Assembly: GCF_963921235.1 (NCBI RefSeq)
Contig: NC_086097.1
Coordinates: 48,982,001 to 49,046,000 of the forward strand
DNA length: 64,000 nt
Direction of reading: 5' to 3'
From: Mobula hypostoma
Lineage: Eukaryota
In this document: in pieces, positions 1,858 through 23,380 of the stretch
Numbering within the stretch: position 1 is the first letter of the stretch
Layout of the letters: the number at the start of each line of letters is the position of its first letter
Translations under genes and position numbers: made by a program
Notes under the pieces: model-generated
What the model was told of the DNA's origin: nothing
Database searches by the model: none
Seen by the model: only the letters and a program-made list of their open reading frames with translations

Positions 1858-2087
1858 AACACACACAAAATGCTATCACCTATCACCTGGTGTTTCACTC
1901 TCCCCTCCCACCACCTTTTGAATCTACTTCTCAGCTTTTTTTTTTCCCCGGTCCTGTCGAAACGTTTCAGCCCGAAATGTGGACTGTACTTTTTTTCCAC
2001 AGATGCTGCCTGGCCTGCTGAGTTCCTCCAGCATTTTGCGTGGGTTGCTTTGATTTCCAGTATCCGCAGATTTTCTCTTGTTTGTGA
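1858..2087 (+). mobile_element. Penelope-like terminal repeat with short inverted 5' piece and a decayed hammerhead motif
   Basis: An inverted aacacacacaaaatgct is followed by a pyrimidine-rich tract, cggtcctgtcga...cccgaaatgtggactg and gatgctgcctggcctgctgagttcctccagcattttg. Confidence 0.7.
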
Positions 2088-3322: not shown

Positions 3323-3851
3323 TAAGGATTGCCAACTGTCCCGTATTAGCCGGGACATCCCGTATATTGGGCTAAATTGGTTTGTCCCATAGGGGACCGC
3401 CCTTGTCCCGTAGTTCCCCCGCTAAGGTAGAGCGTTCCTATGAAACCATTCATAAGCCAAAATGATGTAAAGCGAAGAAGCAATTACCATTAATTTATAT
3501 GGGAAAAATTTTTGAGCATTCCCAGACCAAAAAAATAACCTACCAAATCATACCAAATAACACATAAAACTTAAAATAACAATAACATATAGTAAAAGCA
3601 GGAATGATATGATAAATACACAGCCTATATAAAGTAGAAATAATGTATGTGCAGTGTAGTTTCACTTAACAGAATCGGGAAAATTAAGCCAAAACCGATT
3701 TGTAGGAAAAAAATCAGCACGTACACGCATGCGCACACAGGTACCCACGCAAGGCTTCATGGTCATGGTGGTCTTTGTCGGGGTAAACACTGTCCCATAT
3801 TTGACTGCTACTTTTGTCCCTTATTTGGGAGTGAGAAAGTTGGCAGCCCTA
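3323..3851. mobile_element. Non-autonomous hAT-like MITE (tagggttgccaact-type TIRs) carrying a Tigger terminal fragment
   Basis: Ends taaggattgccaact / agttggcagcccta are imperfect inverted repeats, with repeated subterminal tgtccc motifs. Flanks ccggcatt / ctggcgtc resemble a decayed 8-bp target-site duplication (TSD). Confidence 0.7.
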
Positions 3852-6823: not shown

Positions 6824-8424
6824 CAGGTGCCCCCCGCTTTTCGAACGTTCGCTTTACGAAACCTCTCTGTTATGAAAGACCTACATTAGTTACCTGTTTT
6901 TACTAACAGAAGGTGTTTTCACTGTTACGAGAAAAAGCAGTGCGCGCCCCGAGCAGACGCTCTCCCCCGGATTCGGAACTGCATTCTAGCCGGCATTGCT
7001 TAAACATGTGCCTGTGAGCAGCCATTTGCAAGATGAGTTCTAAGGTATCGGAAAAGCCTAAAAGAGCTCGTAGGGGTGTTACACTTAGCGTAAAACTAGA
7101 CATAATTCAGCATTTCGATCGTGGTGAACGAAGTAAGGACAACGTGAGTTTGGCTTGTGGAAGTTGACGAAGATGATGTTGAAGAGGTTTTGGCATCCCA
7201 TGACCAAGAACTGATAGATGAAGAGCTGATGCAATTGGAAGAGGAAAGGATAACAATCAAAACTGAAAGCAGTAGCGAATGGACCAAAAGTGAAGTCGTC
7301 CAGGAACTGAACGTGAAGCAACTGCATGAGATTTTCGCTGCAATGATAAAGTATGACTTTAATTTTGAAAGGGTATGTCGGTTTAGGGCATATTTGCAGG
7401 ATGGTTTGAGTGCTTACAAAGAACTGTATGATAGAAAAATGCGCGAGGCTAAGCAGTCAAGCAAGCCTTCCACATCAACCACAGCTGACGACAAACCTCG
7501 ACCTTCGACATCGAGGCAGGCAGACATAGAAGAAGATGACCTGCCTGCCATGATGGAAACAGACGACGAGATGACACCCCAGTGTCCCACCACCCGAACC
7601 CCCGGGCCGCAGACGGATACCAATTCGTGGAGAATGTAGTGGTACACGGGACGCATCCAGCACATCTTTAAGAAAAAGCTGAAATAAACAAGCTAATTAA
7701 TTAGGTGCCGCCTGGCACGTAAATGTCGGCCCAGATCAGAGGCGATTGCCGATTGCGTCGCCTCTGATCTGAGCTGATATTTACATGCCGGGCGGCACCT
7801 GAATAATTAGCTTGTTTATTTCAGCTTTTCCTTAAAGATGTGCTGGGTGCGTCCCGGCTGCTGCTGGACACCTGCATGCTTCGCGGATCGGTATCGGTTC
7901 GCTGCCCAGAGGGTGGGGGCCACTGCACCACCCTAACCTCCGACGATTCAGCTTAACATCCCATCATCAGTGTGCTCGGCGCTGTCCCAATTCCAGTAAG
8001 TGATACTACACTGTACATACATTATTACTACTTTATATCGGCTGTGTATTTTTACGTGTTATTTGGTATGATTTGGCAGCTTCATAGCTTAAAGGTTACT
8101 GAAGAGCACTTGCGCCGTGTTTGTGCCAAGAGTGCTTGCGTGAGATTTTCACTACGGAGAACAATGCGGCAATGATTGTGGAATAGTATTTTTACTTTAT
8201 ATAGGCTGTGTATACATCATATCATTCCTGCTTTTACAGTATGTTACTGTTATTTTAGGTTTTATGTGTTATTTGGCATGATTTTGTAGGTTATTTTTGG
8301 GTCTGCGAACGCTCACAAATTTTTCCCATATAAATAAATGGTAATTGCTTCTTTGCTTTACGACATTCCGGCTTACGAACCGTTTCATAGGAACGCTCTA
8401 CCTTCGGGTGGCGGGGGAAACCGG
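6824..8424 (+). mobile_element. Tigger/pogo DNA transposon, internally deleted
   Basis: TA on both sides (6822-6823, 8425-8426); TIRs caggtgccccccgc / gcgggggaaaccgg. N-terminal remnant from ATG 7033 (MSSKVSEKPKRARRGVTLSVKLDIIQHFDRGE, CENP-B/psq-like HTH). Acidic C-terminal ORF 7157-7639 (EVDEDDVEEVLASHDQELIDEELMQLEEE). DDE core missing. Confidence 0.9.
7647..7856. repeat. Long imperfect palindrome (~99-bp arms) inside Tigger
   Basis: cgggacgcatccagcacatctttaag...gatcagaggcga (7647-7745) pairs with tcgcctctgatc...cttaaagatgtgctgggtgcgtcccg (7758-7856). Confidence 0.9.
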
Positions 8425-8861
8425 TATTAATAAAAACACTGGAGACGGGAGCTAAGGTTCATGGTTCTTTACTGGCAGAAACCGAACTCGCACACACATA
8501 CAGATCAATACGCGCCTAATAGCGCATTCACCGACGTGTTACTAAAACATAAAGTAGTCCCTTATTATACTGTAGGCTATACAGTACACTCCACCCCTTT
8601 TATTTTAATAATGTATCAACTGTTTTTTTTACTGGGGCACTATGCTAAACAAATATGTTTGCCCTTAACATAAAAACGCCTACCATTTGTTTAATTAGTA
8701 ACGTAATAATATCAAATTATGGAAAGCTTTTTTTTAACTTTTGGTCTAAGTTAAAGTTAAAGTCTGTCCCGAGCCTTGTGGCCCATCAGACCCATTTATA
8801 ACTCAAGTCTCGGGGGGGGGCGGGGTCTTCTCTGCCTCTCCGGGTAACACCTGTCAATAAA

Positions 8862-9318
8862 TTTAGATTAGATTAGATTATGAGGACACGCAGTCCTATT
8901 TTATTGTTATTTAGTAATGCATGCATTAAGAAATGATACAATGTTTTTCCAGAATGATATCACAGAAACACATGACAAACTGACTGAAAAACTGACTAAA
9001 ACCACATAATTATAACGTATAATTACAACAGTGCAAAGCAATACCGTAATTTGATAAAAACAGACCAAAGTCTGCACGGTAAAAGTCTCAAAGTCTCTTG
9101 AAAGTCCCATCATCTCACGCAGACAATGAACCTCCAGCGCCGCAAACTTGCCGATGCAGCATCCTGGAAGCATCCGACCACAGTCCGACTCCAAGTCCGT
9201 CCGAAAACTCTGAGCCTCCGACTAGCTCTCCAACACCGAGCACCGAGCGCCATCTCTGCCGAGCACTTCGACCCCGGACCCGGCAACAGGCAATAGGCAA
9301 AGCCGAGGATTTCGGACC
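8862..9318 (-). mobile_element. Non-autonomous retroelement (SINE/LINE-tail) with (tctaa)n tail
   Basis: A ttagattagattagatta tail, then an AT-rich 3' region and a GC-rich body. It sits between the SUDS3 3' UTR and the Gypsy pol end. Confidence 0.55.
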
Positions 9319-9417
9319 TTGTTTGTTTTAATACAGATTTCCATATAAAAGTCATGAAAAGGTGACCTCTGAGCATCCGGAATTCAGAAGATATGCACCT
9401 CCAACTTGCTAATAGTT

Positions 9418-11301
9418 CTAGGCAGCAGATCGCCTCCGTATAATGAAGACTCCTCCATGCAGCTGTCCTAGATATATACGTATATTTGTGCTATCACTTG
9501 TCTTCCTTACCCATATCTCATTTGTTCCAACTGAGCTAATTACATGGCTAATCTTTGTTTTCTCCTTAGATTCCAAATAGATAGCCTGACCTTTATGATA
9601 TTATCTCTTATTGCATAATAACTTCCCATCTTCTATTCACGCTTCATATCTTTGTGCTGGTGATTCAGCAGGAGCGCTGGGAAGATGCTCAGGAGAAGAC
9701 GGAGATGCTGTCACTGTTTGTGGAAAACATCATTTTGGGAGTTAAAGAAATACATGATAAATTGGAGAGCAAGGTTGCATTCTACGCTGGTCAACTTGCA
9801 AAGAGTTTGAACAGCAACGCTAAAAGATCCTGAGGGCTCTTTCGGCCGTGATTCAGGTCCTCAGGGACTGTAAAGATAGTGCAGGATGTCTGTTCTTCAG
9901 GTACGATCTGAAAGAATATACAATTTACTTAGGAGAACTCAACGATCCCATCCTGCTTCATTGTGATCATTTTTACGGTTTGAAATGTATAAAGTGGTGG
10001 CTTGAATCAGGATAACAACTCTGCCAACTGTGCTGTACTTCTCTAGATGATAATTATGTACTAGTGGTAACAGAAGAAATAAGTGAAAATGTAGCAAAAT
10101 TATTTCACAAGAGGTGTGATGCATTTTTTGTAGCTTTGGTTTCCATGGTCTGCTTCAAAGATGACTTGCCACAAACAAAGAAGTGGTTGGTGATCTGCTG
10201 TCTCTGCTAGTTATTCAAAAGTCGGGGCAATCCAATAACTCACAGAAAGATCAGTACTTTACCAGTAATCGTTCACCATTTGATGAAGCAGTTGATCAAA
10301 ATCCTGTTGTTCGTTCCATTGTTCTTAAACTGCTGTTAAAGTACCGTTTTGCTGATATTAAGGATGACCTGCAGTGCTATCTGTCTGGCTCAAGAGGGAG
10401 AATTCCTTCAGATGCACATTCAGCAGAAGTGTGAAAATACAACAATAGAAACCTTAGTTTGTTGCCAGAATTCGCCTCTGTTGTGTTGCTCTTTCCCAAC
10501 TTCTTTCTGAAAAATAAGACACATTGCTGAGGATTCAAAATATGTACGTGCAAAAGAAACTTCTCTGCAAAGGATGAAGTGAATGATTCTTAATGGAGGA
10601 AGTGATTGGTTTGAGATTTACCGTGTGGGAAAGCTGTTCTGTTTGACTGGAGATGCTGGACTTCTTGGAGATTTAAGCTTATTGAGAGTTCGCAGATCTT
10701 CCATTATCTGTTCATCTGTTAACAAGTAATTTAACTGCGCAGGTGCAGATTTTCGTCTTTTGTCTGTAATTGGAACAGGGTCATTAGGTCTCTTCCTTAG
10801 TTTCCTTGTCATTATTGGCTTTACCTCCATAGAATCTCCTGTGAGTTCCATTGTTAGCCTCTCATTCTCAATCATCTTTTTCTTTTCTTCCAACTCAATC
10901 TTTTTATCTTCAAATTCCTTCACTGCTGCTTTCTTCTCTTTAATATAATTCCTTTCTCCTTGTTCTGTCTCCAATTGTTGAAAAAGCTCTGCATTTCATA
11001 TTCTTTCCTTGTATTGTTGATCTAGGTTCTTAATCCTTTTCTGATACTCCTGCAAAGTGCCTTCCTGTTACTACTGTAGCTGTCTTTTGCGAAATATCAA
11101 TTTCACCTGGTACATCTGCTCTTTTACTTCCAGGTAGTCTTCATCATCCTGCTTATTGGCAATATCTGTTTCCCTTGCATCCTCTGTATCTTCATCTGAG
11201 TCGCGGCCACGGATACTGCGTTCATCCTCATCGTCGACGCTGTCTAGCTCCTCCTCGTCCTTGTAATAGTCGACAATGGGTGAGTGGAGAGCTGTGGACA
11301 T
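9418..11301 (-). pseudogene. SUDS3: Processed SUDS3 (Sin3-HDAC corepressor subunit SDS3) retrocopy, interrupted at 9711-10648
   Basis: Intronless translation from ATG 11301: [113 protein letters not shown] | [40 protein letters not shown] (stop 9420-9418). At least five premature stops and an apparent 8-codon deletion. Confidence 0.95.
9711..10648 (+). pseudogene. RNF213: Processed RNF213 (mysterin) fragment covering the RING finger and flanking E3 region
   Basis: Frameshifted plus-strand translation gives LSLFVENIILG, ALSAVIQVLRDCKDSA, YTIYLGELNDPILLHCDHFYGLKCIKWW..LCQLC (decayed RING, 9917-10033), RCDAFFVALVSMVCFKD, LLSLLVIQK..SPFDEAVDQNPVVRSIVLKLLLKYRF.DIKD, VARIRLC and [11 protein letters not shown]. 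These are colinear with my recall of vertebrate RNF213 (LFVEHVLLG..CSICLGDAKDPVCLPCDH..SPFNDVVDKTPVIRSVILKLLLKY..VARIRLC..DWHRVYLVRKL). No introns. Confidence 0.9.
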
Positions 11302-11336
11302 CTTCCCCGTTGAGCTGCCCTCCTTCGTTGACACAT

Positions 11337-11740
11337 CTAGTGCCTTGATGGTATGCCAATCCAACTGGATTTTCCTGAGCCATTCACATTCCAGCAATGG
11401 TGGTCTCCATTTTTCAGTACATAGAGGTTCAGCTGCTGTGTTTTGTCTCTGTAGGTCACTGTCACTTTAATTTTACCTTTGGGATGCACTTTCTGTCCTG
11501 TGTAAATCTTTAGTAGTAGTTTAGTTCGTTTCAGAGGCATGTGAGAAAACAGTTGTTTGTAGTCGTGTTCGGAGATCACTGTTAAAGCTGAGCCTGTGTC
11601 CAACTCCATTTTCAGTCTCACGCCCGCCACTTGTGGAGTGATCCATATTACTCTTCGATCATCTGTCTCTTTCATGCTGTGAAGTTGCCGACAAGACAAG
11701 ACAGCTCATTTTTGTCGGAGTCGTTTTCACCATATTCGTT
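11337..11740 (-). pseudogene. Gypsy retropepsin (aspartic protease) region
   Basis: [49 protein letters not shown], then a 1-nt frameshift near 11405 to [14 protein letters not shown]. Confidence 0.9.
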
Positions 11741-11969
11741 TTGGAATATGCTACAAATAAAATGTCACTGAACAGAAATGAAGGAAAGAAATGTTACTGT
11801 TGTGGGAACAGGACACATGACCCGGATGACTGTTGGTTTAAAGACAAAAAATGCCGAAACTGTGGCAGACAGGGCCATATTGGCAAAGTATGCAAAGCTA
11901 GTAAACAGCAGAAAAAGGGCAAAATACAGAGAAACAAGAAACCCCAGAAAGGAAAATACAACAAGGTAC
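11741..11969 (+). pseudogene. Gypsy gag double zinc knuckle, inverted relative to the rest of the element
   Basis: CYCCGNRTHDPDDCWFKDKKCRNCGRQGHIGKVC (CCHC x2) on the plus strand, while the protease is on the minus strand. Confidence 0.85.
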
Positions 11970-12122
11970 AGCACTTTTTGTGTATTTCTCCCTTTTGCCT
12001 ATTTGGAGTACTGCTCCGGACTCATCTGCAGGACACCTACAAATTCTCCAGAGCACATGAATCCCTGACTTACAGTATGACCAGCCCATACATATGAACA
12101 AGCATTTGGGAGACCAGCAGAA

Positions 12123-17250: not shown

Positions 17251-17462
17251 ACATGCCGGACATCCAGGCATGATCAAAATAAAAGTGCTGGCTTGAAGCT
17301 TTGTCTGGTGGCCTGAGGTAAATCAGCAGATCGAGCAGCTTGCCATGCACTGTTCAGGATGCCAATATGTCCAGAAGAAAGGTGTCCAGATCTGTCAGTA
17401 TCATTTCCTGCAGTCCCAGAGTCAACTCCTACAACCACTACAAAGGAGACCCCAAAACTTGA

Positions 17463-17685
17463 ACAACAGGAATTCTGCAGATGCTGGAAATTCAAGCAAC
17501 ACACATCAAAGTTGCTGGTGAACGCAGCAGGCCAAGCAGCATCTATAGGAAGAGGCGCAGTCGACGTTTCAGGCCGAGACCCTTCGTCAGTCCTGACGAA
17601 GGGTCTCGGCCTGAAACGTCGACTGCGCCTCTTCCTATAGATGCTGCTTGGCCTGCTGCGTTCACCAGCAACTTTGATGTGTGTT
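17463..17685. mobile_element. Penelope-like terminal repeat insertion forming a perfect palindrome, with 13-bp TSD
   Basis: Arms 17498-17590 and 17593-17685 are exact reverse complements. ccccaaaacttga is duplicated at 17450-17462 and 17686-17698. Confidence 0.92.
17588..17625 (+). ncRNA. Minimal type I hammerhead ribozyme motif (PLE-associated)
   Basis: cagtc CTGACGA a gggt-ctcg-gcct GAAA cg TC gactg: stem I cagtc/gactg, conserved core CUGANGA and GAAA, palindromic ACGU stem III, GUC cleavage triplet ending at 17620. Confidence 0.8.
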
Positions 17686-18837: not shown

Positions 18838-19753
18838 CTTTAAAATGGAGGCTCGTTCAGTCGCAGTGGCTTCTAAGGGGTCAACCAAAGGTGTTATTGT
18901 CTTTTTTTAACATATTTTATACAGTCGCAAGACTTTGCTGGACATTAAGAACTTAACGTACTGTAGGTCTACCTCAACAGTGAGCTACTCGTTGGCAGAG
19001 AAATTGAAAGAGTTGGGGTCTCGGCCCGAAACATCAACTGTACTCTTCCATAAATGCTGCCTGGCCTGCTGAGTTCCTCCAGAATTGTGTGTGTGTTGCT
19101 TGAATTTCCAGCATCTGCAGATCTCCTCTTGTTTCTGAAGGAGTTAGGCTTGCTGTGGATTGTGCTACTGCCTGCGTCAGAGAGGCATCAGAGGAGTCAG
19201 TGCGCGAAGGTGGAGTGCAATCTAACAGCGAGTGATCGTCTTAGTTGCATTCCTTGTGATCGCAAAACCCTGTTGGATATTGTTAATGTGGAATGCTGCA
19301 AGTCCGATTCACTGATTCGTTGGCAGGCAGCATGGACAGATGTCAGAGGAGCTGCATGAGCTCAGTAATAGCGAAGGCAAGAACTCAGGCCGCGGTGTCA
19401 CGTGTTTACGACCACCCAGGAGAGAGGCATCAAAATCGGTGCAGCCCACATGAGGTGATGCAGTGCAGCGTCCAAGCTGGAGTTGATGCTGCCCCCAGTG
19501 TTCACTCAGCAGAAGACCAGCTGTATTGTGGTCAACTGCAGGCTGCTGCAACATTCATGGACTCTAGGACTTGGACTATTATTTTTTTGTGTGTCTGTAT
19601 TTTACTGATACCTTTTATGTGCTGTATGTGCCTCGTGCTGTGTGTGACTGTTCGAAATCTGTTTTGTACCTTGTCCATGGAGTAATGCTGTTTATTTAGC
19701 TAGATTTATGGGTATTCATGTATAGTTGAATGACAATTAAACTTGAACTTAAA
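18838..19753 (+). mobile_element. Non-autonomous LINE-like/SINE-like element (copy 2) with a PLE insertion
   Basis: Homologous to 2565-4246. Ends ...gttgaatgacaattaaacttgaactt; possible agagaa TSD. Confidence 0.65.
19015..19135 (+). mobile_element. Short PLE 3' end
   Basis: gggtctcggcccgaaacatcaactg...gctgcctggcctgctgagttcctccag...ttccagcatctgcag, flanked by tgaaagagtt / tgaaggagtt (near-TSD). Confidence 0.8.
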
Positions 19754-22754: not shown

Positions 22755-23380
22755 TTAAAAATGCAAACATGAGGAAATCTGCAGATGCTGTAATTTCAAG
22801 CAACACACATAAAAGATGCTGGTGAACGCAGCAGGCCAGGCAGCATCTCTAGGAAGAGGTGCAGTTGACGTTTTTGGCCGAGACCCTTCGTCAGGACTAA
22901 CTGAAAGAAGAGCTAGTAAGAGATTTGAAAGTGGGAGGGAGAGGGGGAAGATCCGAAATGATAGGAAAAGACAGGAGGGGGAGGGATGGAGCCAAGAGCT
23001 GGACAGTTGATTGGCAAAAGGGATATGAGAGGATCATGGGACAGGAGGCCTAGGGAGAAAGAAAAGGGAGAGGGGAGGGAAACCCAGAGGATGGGCAAGG
23101 GGTATAGTGAGAGGGACAGAGGGAGAAAAAGGAGAGAGAGAGAAAGAATGTGTGTATATAAATAAATAACGGATGGGGTACGAGGGGGAGGTGGGGCATT
23201 AGCGGAAGTTAGAGAAGTCGATGTTCATGCCATCAGGTTGGAGGCTACCCAGACGGAATATAAGGTGTTGTTCCTCCAACCTGAGTGTGGCTTCATCTTT
23301 ACAGTAGAGGAGGCCGTGGATAGACATATCAGAATGGGAATAGGATGTGGAATTAAAATGTGTGGCCACTGAGAGATCCA
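22755..23380 (-). mobile_element. Penelope-like element 3' part (GIY-YIG endonuclease C-terminus + terminal repeat)
   Basis: ORF 23199-23381 VATHFNSTSYSHSDMSIHGLLYC..LRLEEQHLIFRLGSLQPDGMNIDF. Terminal repeat with a mutated hammerhead at ~22862-22899. Confidence 0.9.

Follow-up and report, generated by a model that had tools for sequence, protein, structure and literature searches.

Retrocopies mediated by LTR retrotransposons were described by Tan et al. (2016, Genome Res 26:1663; PMC5131818), who found that such copies hold partial mRNAs, show microsimilarity where the template was switched, can combine several genes in one chimera and may be retroposed again. Templated insertions are divided in the account of Onozawa and Aplan (2016; PMC5110952) into class 2, with microhomology and no poly(A), and class 1, with target duplication. 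According to a 2026 preprint (10.64898/2026.06.26.734816), SUDS3 is one of the leading parents of retrocopies in cartilaginous fishes, and the number of retrocopies is linked there to non-LTR elements. Among the papers listed on SUDS3 or RNF213 retrocopies, none describes a SUDS3/rnf213-carrying element. The element described here is a non-autonomous LTR retroelement of ~4.2 kb that has a SUDS3 retrocopy as cargo and is present in hundreds of decaying copies. One copy lies in the window, by which we mean the whole 64-kb stretch of DNA that was analysed, and holds a second cargo: parts of eight consecutive rnf213 exons around the RING finger, spliced, intron-less and dead.

The carrier consists of a 5' LTR, PBS, gag with a CCHC knuckle, protease, SUDS3, polypurine tract (PPT) and 3' LTR. 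Copies elsewhere are bounded by two LTRs of ~190-225 bp that have TG..CA ends and stand about 4.2 kb from each other, and they possess a PBS and a PPT; the order of the element parts was identical in every locus fetched, 12 of 12 in one set and 16 of 16 in another. The rnf213 piece extends the first cargo (SUDS3) and replaces no part of it. In window terms rnf213 is on the + strand and gag, protease and SUDS3 are on the - strand, a relation that recurred in every copy fetched. The 3' LTR (8425..8590, - strand), the sole LTR of the carrier family in the 64-kb window, has its inner end at about 8588-8590, is missing its outer ~40 nt and matches both terminal repeats elsewhere; the PPT (about 8589-8601, - strand) adjoins it. 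Next comes an unrelated repeat (8865..9317, no strand assigned), a private insertion from outside the family, as position 8864 abuts 9318 in most other copies that have the region. Beyond SUDS3, a stretch comprising the SUDS3 leader and an aspartic-protease remnant (11302..11732, - strand; Pfam gag-asp_proteas, E 3.8e-4, below the cut-off) is colinear in all other copies. The gag CCHC zinc-knuckle piece (11740..11970; zf-CCHC, below the cut-off) is inverted in this copy and lies on the + strand; its orientation was opposite to this in seven of 12 and 15 of 16 other loci, the remaining loci having no such piece. Family homology ends there, and no further gag, PBS or 5' LTR was found in the window. 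The window copy is thus additionally broken, with no 5' LTR, an inverted gag piece and a foreign insertion.

The SUDS3 retrocopy lies on the - strand in two parts. Its N-terminal part (10649..11301; start codon 11299-11301; ORFs 10618..10995 and 11071..11466) reads ...KSPRSPASP up to the right junction, and the reading resumes as ASPSSPEH... at the left junction in the C-terminal part (9418..9710; stop codon 9418-9420), which was likewise delimited from ORFs and ends in the left copy of a 10-mer. The two parts are contiguous in insert-free copies. Since Pfam gave no match on the SUDS3 pieces of the window, the identification was made on an uninterrupted copy, which scored 28.7 bits for Pfam Sds3 (cut-off 25.4) and matched PDB SDS3 chains with E values of 1.6e-37 and 3.1e-29. 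A genome-wide search with the 60 amino acids encoded at 9421-9600 returned at least 150 matches (150 scored of 336 candidates), all of them full-length; the matches examined were all element copies, and the parental SUDS3 gene was not located with this C-terminal query.

Between the two parts, 938 bp (9711-10648) read on the + strand, opposite to SUDS3, as the RING region of RNF213, with frameshifts. RNF213 is an innate-immunity (antimicrobial/antiviral) E3 ligase, a protein of about 5000 amino acids. The translation of 10165-10434 matched nine distinct RNF213 sequences in the PDB (best 6tay_A, residues 3512-3582, E 1.8e-15), and residues 399-761 of an RNF213-like protein of the little skate were aligned with 9708-10651 by tblastn in two frames, with stops and gaps. 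The RING stretch contains an in-frame stop and its first two cysteines are replaced; all Pfam RING matches on the insert were below the cut-off, and an intact C3HC4 RING in an open frame was not found in the 0.94-kb insert. The insert is not a functional RNF213 RING E3 ligase gene. On either side of it stands the exact 10-mer GGAGATGCTG (9701-9710 and 10649-10658, + strand). These are the only two matches in the 64-kb window, where 0.06 are expected, and two or more occurred in none of 100 shuffles. The last 3 nt of the left 10-mer (CTG) double as the first 3 nt of the rnf213 homology and the first 3 nt of the right 10-mer (GGA) as its last 3 nt, and the processed fragment, antisense to the element, was delimited at 9708..10651 (+ strand) by blastn against the parental gene and tblastn with the skate protein. 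Inspection of the sequence revealed no A-run at the RNF213 3' end (10648).

Compared with the genome's own rnf213 gene by blastn, 9708-10651 resolved into eight exon pieces of 86-96% identity that span 23,016 bp in the gene. On the + strand of the window these are A (9708-9803), B (to 9906), C (to 10083), D (to 10260), E (to 10344), F (10346-10388), G (10385-10526) and H (10526-10651), and the fragment ends inside exon H. Six rnf213 introns are gone exactly at canonical AG/GT borders, which shows that the fragment derives from mRNA; the seventh disappeared in a deletion that also took 124 nt of exon sequence. In contigs from sequencing runs guessed to be RNA, sequence colinear with 9708-10172 runs on past both ends of the capture into parental exons, so that the captured exon order is that of the real mRNA. 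A capture of genomic DNA, whether as a fragment or as a single-exon region of rnf213, is refuted to the point of being negligible by the eight pieces joined at canonical splice borders, given that the source-gene introns between the captured exons measure 0.7-8.7 kb.

A preliminary description of the window had reported a 938-bp antisense, frameshifted RNF213 RING fragment inside a SUDS3 retrocopy, flanked at both junctions by an exact 10-mer and devoid of poly(A). All of this is borne out: the insert is RNF213 by the PDB and skate-protein matches, the SUDS3 reading is interrupted exactly between the two 10-mers (9701-9710 and 10649-10658) and 10648 is followed by no A-run. Its proposal that the piece was taken from the interior of a long, spliced rnf213 transcript is supported by the exon pieces and their borders. 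It had asked whether a protein other than RNF213 would match best and whether the region is a single exon in this lineage; the best match of the insert is RNF213, and the region comprises eight exons over 23 kb. It had also suggested a search for further copies of the SUDS3/RNF213 junction. At least 23 other places match 9500-10860 end to end across both junctions with 87-91% identity, and the capture did not take place at this locus. What lies in the window is a member of an amplified LTR-element sub-family. Each of the two junctions, upstream and downstream, was retrieved from 11 of 12 copies, at unchanged breakpoints.

Copies with and without the insert were compared in the best 40 places with the SUDS3 C-terminal part after the window, from 150 scored of 336 candidates. 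Among these 40 SUDS3-bearing copies, 34 are empty with a single 10-mer, four have the insert and two are unclassifiable. SUDS3 was uninterrupted, with one 10-mer, in 16 of 16 further loci in one set and in 30 of 32 in another (the other two being unclassifiable). The 10-mer is single in 46 of 46 classifiable insert-free copies and is therefore a true duplication of its SUDS3 target, and the insertion came after the capture of SUDS3. The element already carried SUDS3 and was multiplying when one copy gained the rnf213 piece. The chimeric element then kept retrotransposing beside insert-free elements, which gave dozens of copies and several deletion or recombinant variants. A tree of 29 rows built from the SUDS3-N/protease region is a star (median terminal branch 0.045), none of its 26 inner branches being well supported, and it has no sub-family structure; a single origin of the insert-bearing copies is thus neither backed nor rejected by it. 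Contigs were compared from three runs guessed to be RNA and from one DNA run. Those of the guessed-RNA runs have SUDS3 in its uninterrupted form (joint from 9700 to 10649) and include genuine rnf213 mRNA; none of their listed pieces crosses a SUDS3/rnf213 junction, in contigs that drop rare forms and from which expression cannot be inferred. Among the listed holders of 9400-10900 there were no runs on record as RNA; parts of the stretch are present in runs under several species labels.

The acquisition duplicated a short SUDS3 stretch and made use of 3-8 nt of microhomology at each junction. The window form has CTG and GGA at its two junctions (3 + 3 nt); by our own calculation 3 nt at one junction is weak, since it arises by chance in about one in 20 random joins. 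A sister form, variant B (L040-L043), goes 12 nt further into SUDS3, retains the whole of exon H (+72 nt) and holds the 124 nt that the window form is missing; its junction has 7 nt of microhomology (CTCCTGA), or 8 nt on the assumption that the next exon had been spliced on in the mRNA. The 124 nt correspond to an internal deletion that took away the end of exon F (~70 nt), the start of exon G (~54 nt) and the intron between them, and its joint (10385..10388, + strand) has a 4-nt microhomology, CTGG. Variant B cannot derive from the window form, as it holds 72 + 124 nt more of rnf213. A single deletion of 84 nt between TCC repeats is enough to convert the variant-B junction into that of the window. 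Because the sister variant keeps more of SUDS3 and rnf213 at that junction, the 10-bp repeat is probably the remnant of a longer duplication of ~22 nt. The direct repeats of the preliminary description are thus a real target duplication, but their 10 bp are probably a leftover; of its overall interpretation, the mid-transcript capture of spliced mRNA stands, whereas the event was not local to this site and 10 bp is unlikely to be the original duplication length.

The window form and variant B might be two independent rnf213 captures at nearly the same SUDS3 site, a reading that we regard as very improbable. Their upstream junctions do differ, with 3 versus 7-8 nt of microhomology and positions shifted by 12 nt in SUDS3 and by 72 nt in exon H, and the common ancestor, with a long exon H and the full downstream part, was not found among the places listed: none of the 23 full-length copies listed is longer by 84 or 124 nt, and none of 40 places with a long exon H lies within 2 kb of 38 places with the window-type downstream junction (best 40 of about 300 candidates each). 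The two forms nevertheless have the orientation, the SUDS3 region and the overlapping exons C-H in common, and the single TCC-repeat deletion of 84 nt turns one junction into the other. The identical CTGG joint occurs with the long-exon-H junction in L044 and with the window-type junction in L045 and the window, and the identical downstream truncation occurs with both upstream junctions. L044 and L045 mix characters of the window form and variant B, as is expected from recombination between co-packaged RNAs. We therefore favour one acquisition, and consider it likely that this was a microhomology-mediated capture of rnf213 mRNA, driven by reverse transcription and antisense to the SUDS3-carrying LTR element, followed by retrotransposition. 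The standard model of template switching during minus-strand synthesis predicts cargo in the orientation of the element and no duplication of the recipient; both predictions fail here, so that a less usual step is needed, either a switch during plus-strand synthesis or a cDNA template. We know of no direct precedent for such a step. In the plus-strand route, DNA synthesis in the particle would have proceeded until the growing strand left its SUDS3 template at ...CTCCTGA and annealed to a co-packaged rnf213 mRNA at UCAGGAG. About 1.15 kb would then have been copied towards the 5' end of the rnf213 mRNA before a jump back to SUDS3 about 22 nt upstream of the point of departure, and later slippage deletions at TCC and CTGG would have given the window form with its 10-bp repeats. 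This route would account for the antisense orientation, the missing poly(A), the microhomologies and the flanking duplication.

We infer that the joining was carried out by reverse transcriptase, but it may have taken place elsewhere. A reverse-transcribed piece of rnf213 mRNA could have been put into an integrated, transcriptionally active master SUDS3 element in the nucleus, from which the sub-family then arose. This could be the work of a LINE reverse transcriptase that used microhomology to prime at a staggered nick, or of end-joining repair at a double-strand break with staggered ends. Either orientation would be equally likely in that case, and the orientation problem would be gone. The duplication, 10 nt now and about 12-22 nt as reconstructed, is within the range of LINE-1, whose target duplications measure 7-20 bp. 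A recipient duplication of at least 5 bp is given as a hallmark of LINE-type insertion (class 1; PMC5110952), and the repeat of 10 bp exceeds this; at the same time there is no poly(A), the fragment stops short of the mRNA 3' end and the target ...GACGGAGATGCTGG... is not T-rich. Double-strand breaks can take up fragments of spliced mRNA that have no poly(A) and are attached through microhomology (class 2, PMC5110952; Ono et al., 2015, PMC4516963), and microhomology is there, but the SUDS3 recipient was duplicated and not deleted. The nuclear route further requires that an active element of 4 kb was struck by chance in 3.5 Gb of genome, though any other strike would have gone unamplified and unnoticed, and the carrier family has joints of the reverse-transcriptase type elsewhere, in its SUDS3 cargo and in three microhomology deletions. 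A switch inside the particle and an insertion into an integrated master copy are indistinguishable from the sequence; on the points listed we hold the nuclear route to be possible but clearly the less likely of the two.

All copies decay neutrally, and the RNF213 part keeps pace with its flanks: the mean pairwise identity over 12 rows is 0.918 for SUDS3-C, 0.924 for RNF213, 0.919 for SUDS3-N and 0.919 for the protease. The antisense cargo could in principle function through transcripts in the sense of the element that would pair with rnf213 mRNA or, as the preliminary description suggested, feed piRNA or endo-siRNA, tuning the E3 ligase or aiding escape. The window copy shares 99 exact 21-mers with the parental exons (longest run 43 nt); 18 other copies tested are 87-93.5% identical to these exons, with 58-228 exact 21-mers each and runs of 34-114 nt, and complete copies keep both LTRs. 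In mouse oocytes, endo-siRNAs derived from pseudogenes are directed against the parental gene. Small RNAs from a moth retrocopy that target the parental gene are also described (PMC9674220). A function is nonetheless highly unlikely, as the RNF213 segment and its flanks have diverged alike (0.924 versus 0.918-0.919), insert-bearing copies are a minority (four of 40) with no separate or later burst in the tree, and all copies are old and decayed, that of the window being without the 5' LTR that would drive sense transcription. That the cargo might lower RNF213, as a counter-defence of the element or as a regulator adopted by the host, appears marginally less likely still.

One genome here retains the source gene, many elements with the site still empty, elements with the site filled, and several forms derived from these by deletion or recombination; as a natural record of an LTR retroelement picking up host messages this is unusually complete. 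It shows that a second capture can enter backwards and duplicate its target. As the minus-strand model predicts neither the reversed orientation nor the duplication, the case points to plus-strand switching or nuclear patching. Should antisense rnf213 RNA be made and act on its gene, the cargo of a transposon would be tied to an innate-immunity gene in a way that is rarely seen.

The features that the element has in common with the retrocopies of Tan et al. (PMC5131818), as these are described there, are numerous. A partial mRNA without introns lies within an LTR element whose own coding part was replaced, the fusion points have short matches and no poly(A), more than one host gene is carried per element, and copying continued by secondary retroposition with the switch points unchanged. 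The differences from their minus-strand model are that rnf213 lies antisense in the element and has recipient sequence (10 nt of SUDS3) repeated on its two sides; the word 'orientation' does not occur in the main text of that paper. Maize Bs1 (PMC5131818) and retroviral oncogene capture likewise involve a defective LTR element with several host-gene pieces. Unlike in these, the second cargo here is antisense and interrupts the first. The cargo of Bs1 and of the oncogene captures is sense-oriented and partly expressed as a fusion protein. Most of the animal cases in the Tan survey are reportedly single loci. Copies number in the hundreds here, versus one to five for Bs1 (as quoted in PMC5131818). 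The insert resembles templated insertions (Onozawa and Aplan, 2016, PMC5110952; PMC4516963) in being a spliced cDNA of several hundred bp from a distant gene, which may lie in either orientation. It fits neither of their classes fully (PMC5110952), having a duplication without poly(A) or a T-rich site, and differs in that the recipient was itself a retroelement, which then spread the patch. Like the PxyMasc retrocopies of Plutella (PMC9674220) and the pseudogenes behind mouse endo-siRNAs, it is an antisense host-gene copy in repeats with long exact matches to the parental mRNA; unlike in those systems, the rnf213 insert shows no sign of constraint. Finally, whereas the preprint on cartilaginous fishes (10.64898/2026.06.26.734816), whose main text does not mention RNF213, links retrocopies to non-LTR elements, the SUDS3 copies described here ride an LTR element.

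The 938 bp at 9711–10648 of the window (+ strand) interrupt a SUDS3 retrocopy on the − strand and are flanked by the 10-mer GGAGATGCTG at 9701–9710 and 10649–10658. Just two occurrences of this 10-mer were found across the 64 kb window (0.06 expected; none of 100 shuffles gave two). The − strand SUDS3 reading reaches the right junction at ...KSPRSPASP and picks up again with ASPSSPEHLPSAPAES at the left junction. The identity of SUDS3 was checked on an uninterrupted copy, which matched Pfam Sds3 at 28.7 bits (cut-off 25.4) and PDB SDS3 chains with E values of 1.6e-37 and 3.1e-29. The + strand of the 938 bp translates as RNF213. One open piece matched mouse and human RNF213 structures (top hit 6tay_A, residues 3512–3582, E = 1.8e-15), and residues 399–761 of P0001, a little-skate RNF213-like protein, were aligned to 9708–10651 in two frames with stops and gaps. 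Within the RING of the insert there is an in-frame stop, and the first two cysteines are missing. An A-run was looked for at the 3' end of the RNF213 fragment and is absent. The located repeats, the PDB matches and the P0001 alignment thus confirm the preliminary description of an antisense RNF213 RING fragment, lacking poly(A), within SUDS3 between 10 bp repeats, and RNF213 is the best match of the insert.

Contig C1 of the 3.48 Gb assembly contains the window. Two rnf213 genes were located on contig C68 using the part of P0001 outside the captured region. The closer one (about 48.81–48.85 Mb) was compared with the window over 30 kb (L021–L023), and window positions 9708–10651 were resolved into eight pieces (exons A–H) with 86–96% identity, spread over 23,016 bp of the source gene. 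At six of the seven joins canonical parental borders (AG before the exon, GT after it) fall exactly where the window sequence changes piece. The seventh join lacks the intron together with ~70 nt from the end of the exon before it and ~54 nt from the start of the exon after it, and has CTGG common to both sides. Runs guessed to be RNA contain contigs that are colinear with 9708–10172 and extend past both capture ends into parental exons, so genuine rnf213 mRNA has the exon order of the window. The insert therefore derives from rnf213 mRNA and, as it starts and stops within exons, comes from an internal stretch of a very long transcript; the earlier proposal of a spliced capture from mid-transcript holds against the species' own gene. 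C68 also carries the more distant rnf213 paralogue (G000:C68:41296520-41309968), 7.5 Mb away from the source gene; its amino-acid identity with the skate protein is 40–57%.

Other copies of the SUDS3/RNF213 junction, which the preliminary description had suggested seeking, were found using 9500–10860, a query spanning both junctions: scoring the best 40 of 430 first-look candidates gave at least 23 other end-to-end matches at 87–91% identity, plus partial ones. Comparison with twelve 10 kb loci gave common homology at 8425–8864, 9318–11732 and 11740–11970. Other copies have direct repeats of ~190–225 bp with TG..CA ends, roughly 4.2 kb apart; the 5' repeat is followed by a TGG... primer-binding site, the 3' repeat preceded by a purine tract. 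The repeats enclose, besides the SUDS3 retrocopy, what remains of gag (with a CCHC knuckle) and of an aspartic protease. The carrier is a non-autonomous LTR retroelement with SUDS3 in place of the pol region. In two insert-free loci (L024:2569-3726 and L025:2549-3718) one frame is open for 385–389 residues, from the protease end through the SUDS3 leader and the entire SUDS3 coding sequence; this putative protease–SUDS3 fusion would recall gag–onc fusions.

The window copy is damaged. Its sole LTR is the 3' LTR, with the outer ~40 nt missing. A private foreign insertion of 453 bp (8865–9317) belongs to another repeat family, similar sequence (71–78% identity) occurring near copies L010, L014 and L027. 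The gag CCHC piece (11740–11970) is inverted: of 12 other loci seven have it in the opposite orientation, as do 15 of a further 16, and the remaining loci are without it; compared with the 22 loci that have it, only the window copy has it inverted in place, with ~21 nt lost at the breakpoint (11733–11970). Family homology ends beyond 11970, with no more gag, primer-binding site or 5' LTR in the window. Inverted repeats of ~225 bp (3417–3642 and 8187–8411, 86–92% complementary) enclose ~5 kb of sequence with its right end next to the shortened LTR, which may be another transposon whose insertion cost the LTR its outer ~40 nt. A T8 run at 8623–8630 (+ strand) reads as A8 on the element sense strand, where the purine tract and 3' LTR follow ~32 nt downstream. 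The run is kept in L010 and may be what survives of a poly(A) tail that SUDS3 brought along at the first capture. A short repeat containing GATGCTGCCTGGCCTGCTGAGTTCCTCCAG also occurs several times in the window (1995–2087, 19046–19138, 17462–17685 and 22766–22901), one pair forming a perfect 93 nt palindrome (17498–17685).

A search with the C-terminal 60 residues of SUDS3 gave at least 150 scored matches among 336 candidates. All 16 loci picked for long open frames are without the rnf213 piece, window position 9710 adjoining 10649 with a single 10-mer. A second sample, not picked by frame length, took the best 40 rows after the window itself: 32 newly fetched stretches (30 empty, two unclassifiable), four more empty sites from the first 16 loci and four known insert-bearing places, giving 34 empty, four filled and two unclassifiable. 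Empty copies contain the 10-mer once, so the repeat at filled sites is a genuine target duplication; the SUDS3 element was present and multiplying earlier than the rnf213-bearing form, and also side by side with it. In run X1 (DNA contigs) the summed depth over the SUDS3 flanks was ~5–20 times that over the insert, which agrees in direction with the 34:4 ratio, contig depth not being equal to copy number.

As for junction microhomology, the bases common to source rnf213 and SUDS3 are CTG on the left side and GGA on the right, so the duplicated SUDS3 stretch is 4 to 10 nt, since shared bases can be assigned either way. The breakpoints of either junction recur unchanged in 11 of 12 other copies, which fits a single origin followed by copying. 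A whole-protein search revealed further intron-less rnf213 pieces, forming a second set (residues ~500–790), and four fetched loci (L040–L043) proved to be another form of the same element, variant B. Here SUDS3 extends 12 nt further, to ...CAGCATCTCCGTCTTCTCCTGA, and antisense rnf213 begins at the final base of exon H, giving 72 nt more than the window fragment; the 124 nt absent from the window form are kept. The piece ends in the third exon, joined to the element 3' region; exon pieces A and B are lost, as is the C-terminal part of SUDS3. The upstream junction of variant B has 7 nt in common (CTCCTGA), or 8 on the assumption that splicing had joined the following exon to the mRNA. Variant B cannot derive from the window form because it holds parental sequence that the latter lacks; the window upstream junction does follow from that of variant B by an 84 nt deletion between two TCC triplets.

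L044 combines the long exon H, and L045 the window-type junction, with the 124 nt deletion and a truncated downstream part. Once the inferred ancestor is counted, all four long/short and full/truncated combinations exist, which requires recombination or recurrent identical deletion; recombination is to be expected where two RNAs are packaged together. In the simplest history a single capture, with a ~22 nt duplication (12–22 nt allowing for shared bases), was followed by slippage deletions. The 10 bp repeat of the preliminary description thus stands as a duplication but is probably the remnant of a longer one. No copy of the ancestral form was found: the 23 full-length copies (best 40 of 430 scored) include none with an extra 84 or 124 nt, and among the matches listed no long-exon place (at least 40) is near any window-type downstream junction (at least 38).

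A spliced mRNA was inserted into an element already carrying SUDS3, with duplication of the target and microhomology at every joint, and retrotransposition went on after capture; the enzyme and place of the rnf213 capture we infer. The SUDS3 cargo of the family was probably acquired by reverse-transcriptase template switching, as in Tan et al. (2016; PMC5131818). The model as outlined there is switching in minus-strand synthesis on RNA, which predicts sense cargo and no duplication. For rnf213, the growing plus strand would instead quit its DNA template at ...CTCCTGA, anneal to UCAGGAG in a co-packaged rnf213 mRNA, copy it towards the mRNA 5' end and go back upstream of its departure point, a route that fits the antisense orientation. 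We give this switch within the particle about even chances. A patch made in the nucleus, in a master copy that had already integrated, would account equally well for orientation and duplication. It would have been made by a LINE enzyme acting at a staggered nick, or cDNA would have served to repair a break (classes outlined in PMC5110952 and PMC4516963). We consider this nuclear route rather unlikely: LINE-class insertions come with poly(A) and a T-rich site, both absent here, and insertions of the repair class have no duplication such as is seen here. Taken together, with the particle and nuclear routes both included, our account is probably correct.

A tree of the SUDS3-N/protease region (29 rows: 11 filled, three variant B and 15 empty; L016, L017, L042 and L033 were left out for short coverage) is a star, with none of 26 inner branches well supported, a median terminal branch of 0.045, and filled, variant B and empty forms not separated. 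Among 12 filled copies (L017 left out) the mean pairwise identity is 0.918 for SUDS3-C, 0.924 for rnf213 and 0.919 for both SUDS3-N and protease, so the rnf213 piece decays like its surroundings. Copies share 87–93.5% identity with parental rnf213 exons, and LTR pairs within single copies 75–95%. These values point to a burst of considerable age; at the substitution rates usually assumed for vertebrates it would date back tens of millions of years, a reasoned figure and not a computed date. Antisense RNA against rnf213, an innate-immunity gene, is on complementarity only possible: 18 other copies share 58–228 exact 21-mers each with parental exons (exact runs of 34–114 nt), and the window copy 99 (longest run 43 nt). 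Function is counted against by the neutral decay, by the minority of filled copies (four of the best 40 rows), by the lack of a separate burst of filled copies in the tree and by the missing 5' LTR of the window copy.

The claimed origin by mRNA capture is supported and extended. No published description of this SUDS3/rnf213 LTR element was found in the literature; a 2026 preprint (10.64898/2026.06.26.734816) places SUDS3 among the top retrocopy parents in cartilaginous fishes, and RNF213 is unmentioned in its main text. The insert-bearing element belongs to a known kind, the LTR-mediated chimeric retrocopy, from which it differs in that the second cargo is antisense and flanked by a duplication, and in its unusually high copy number.
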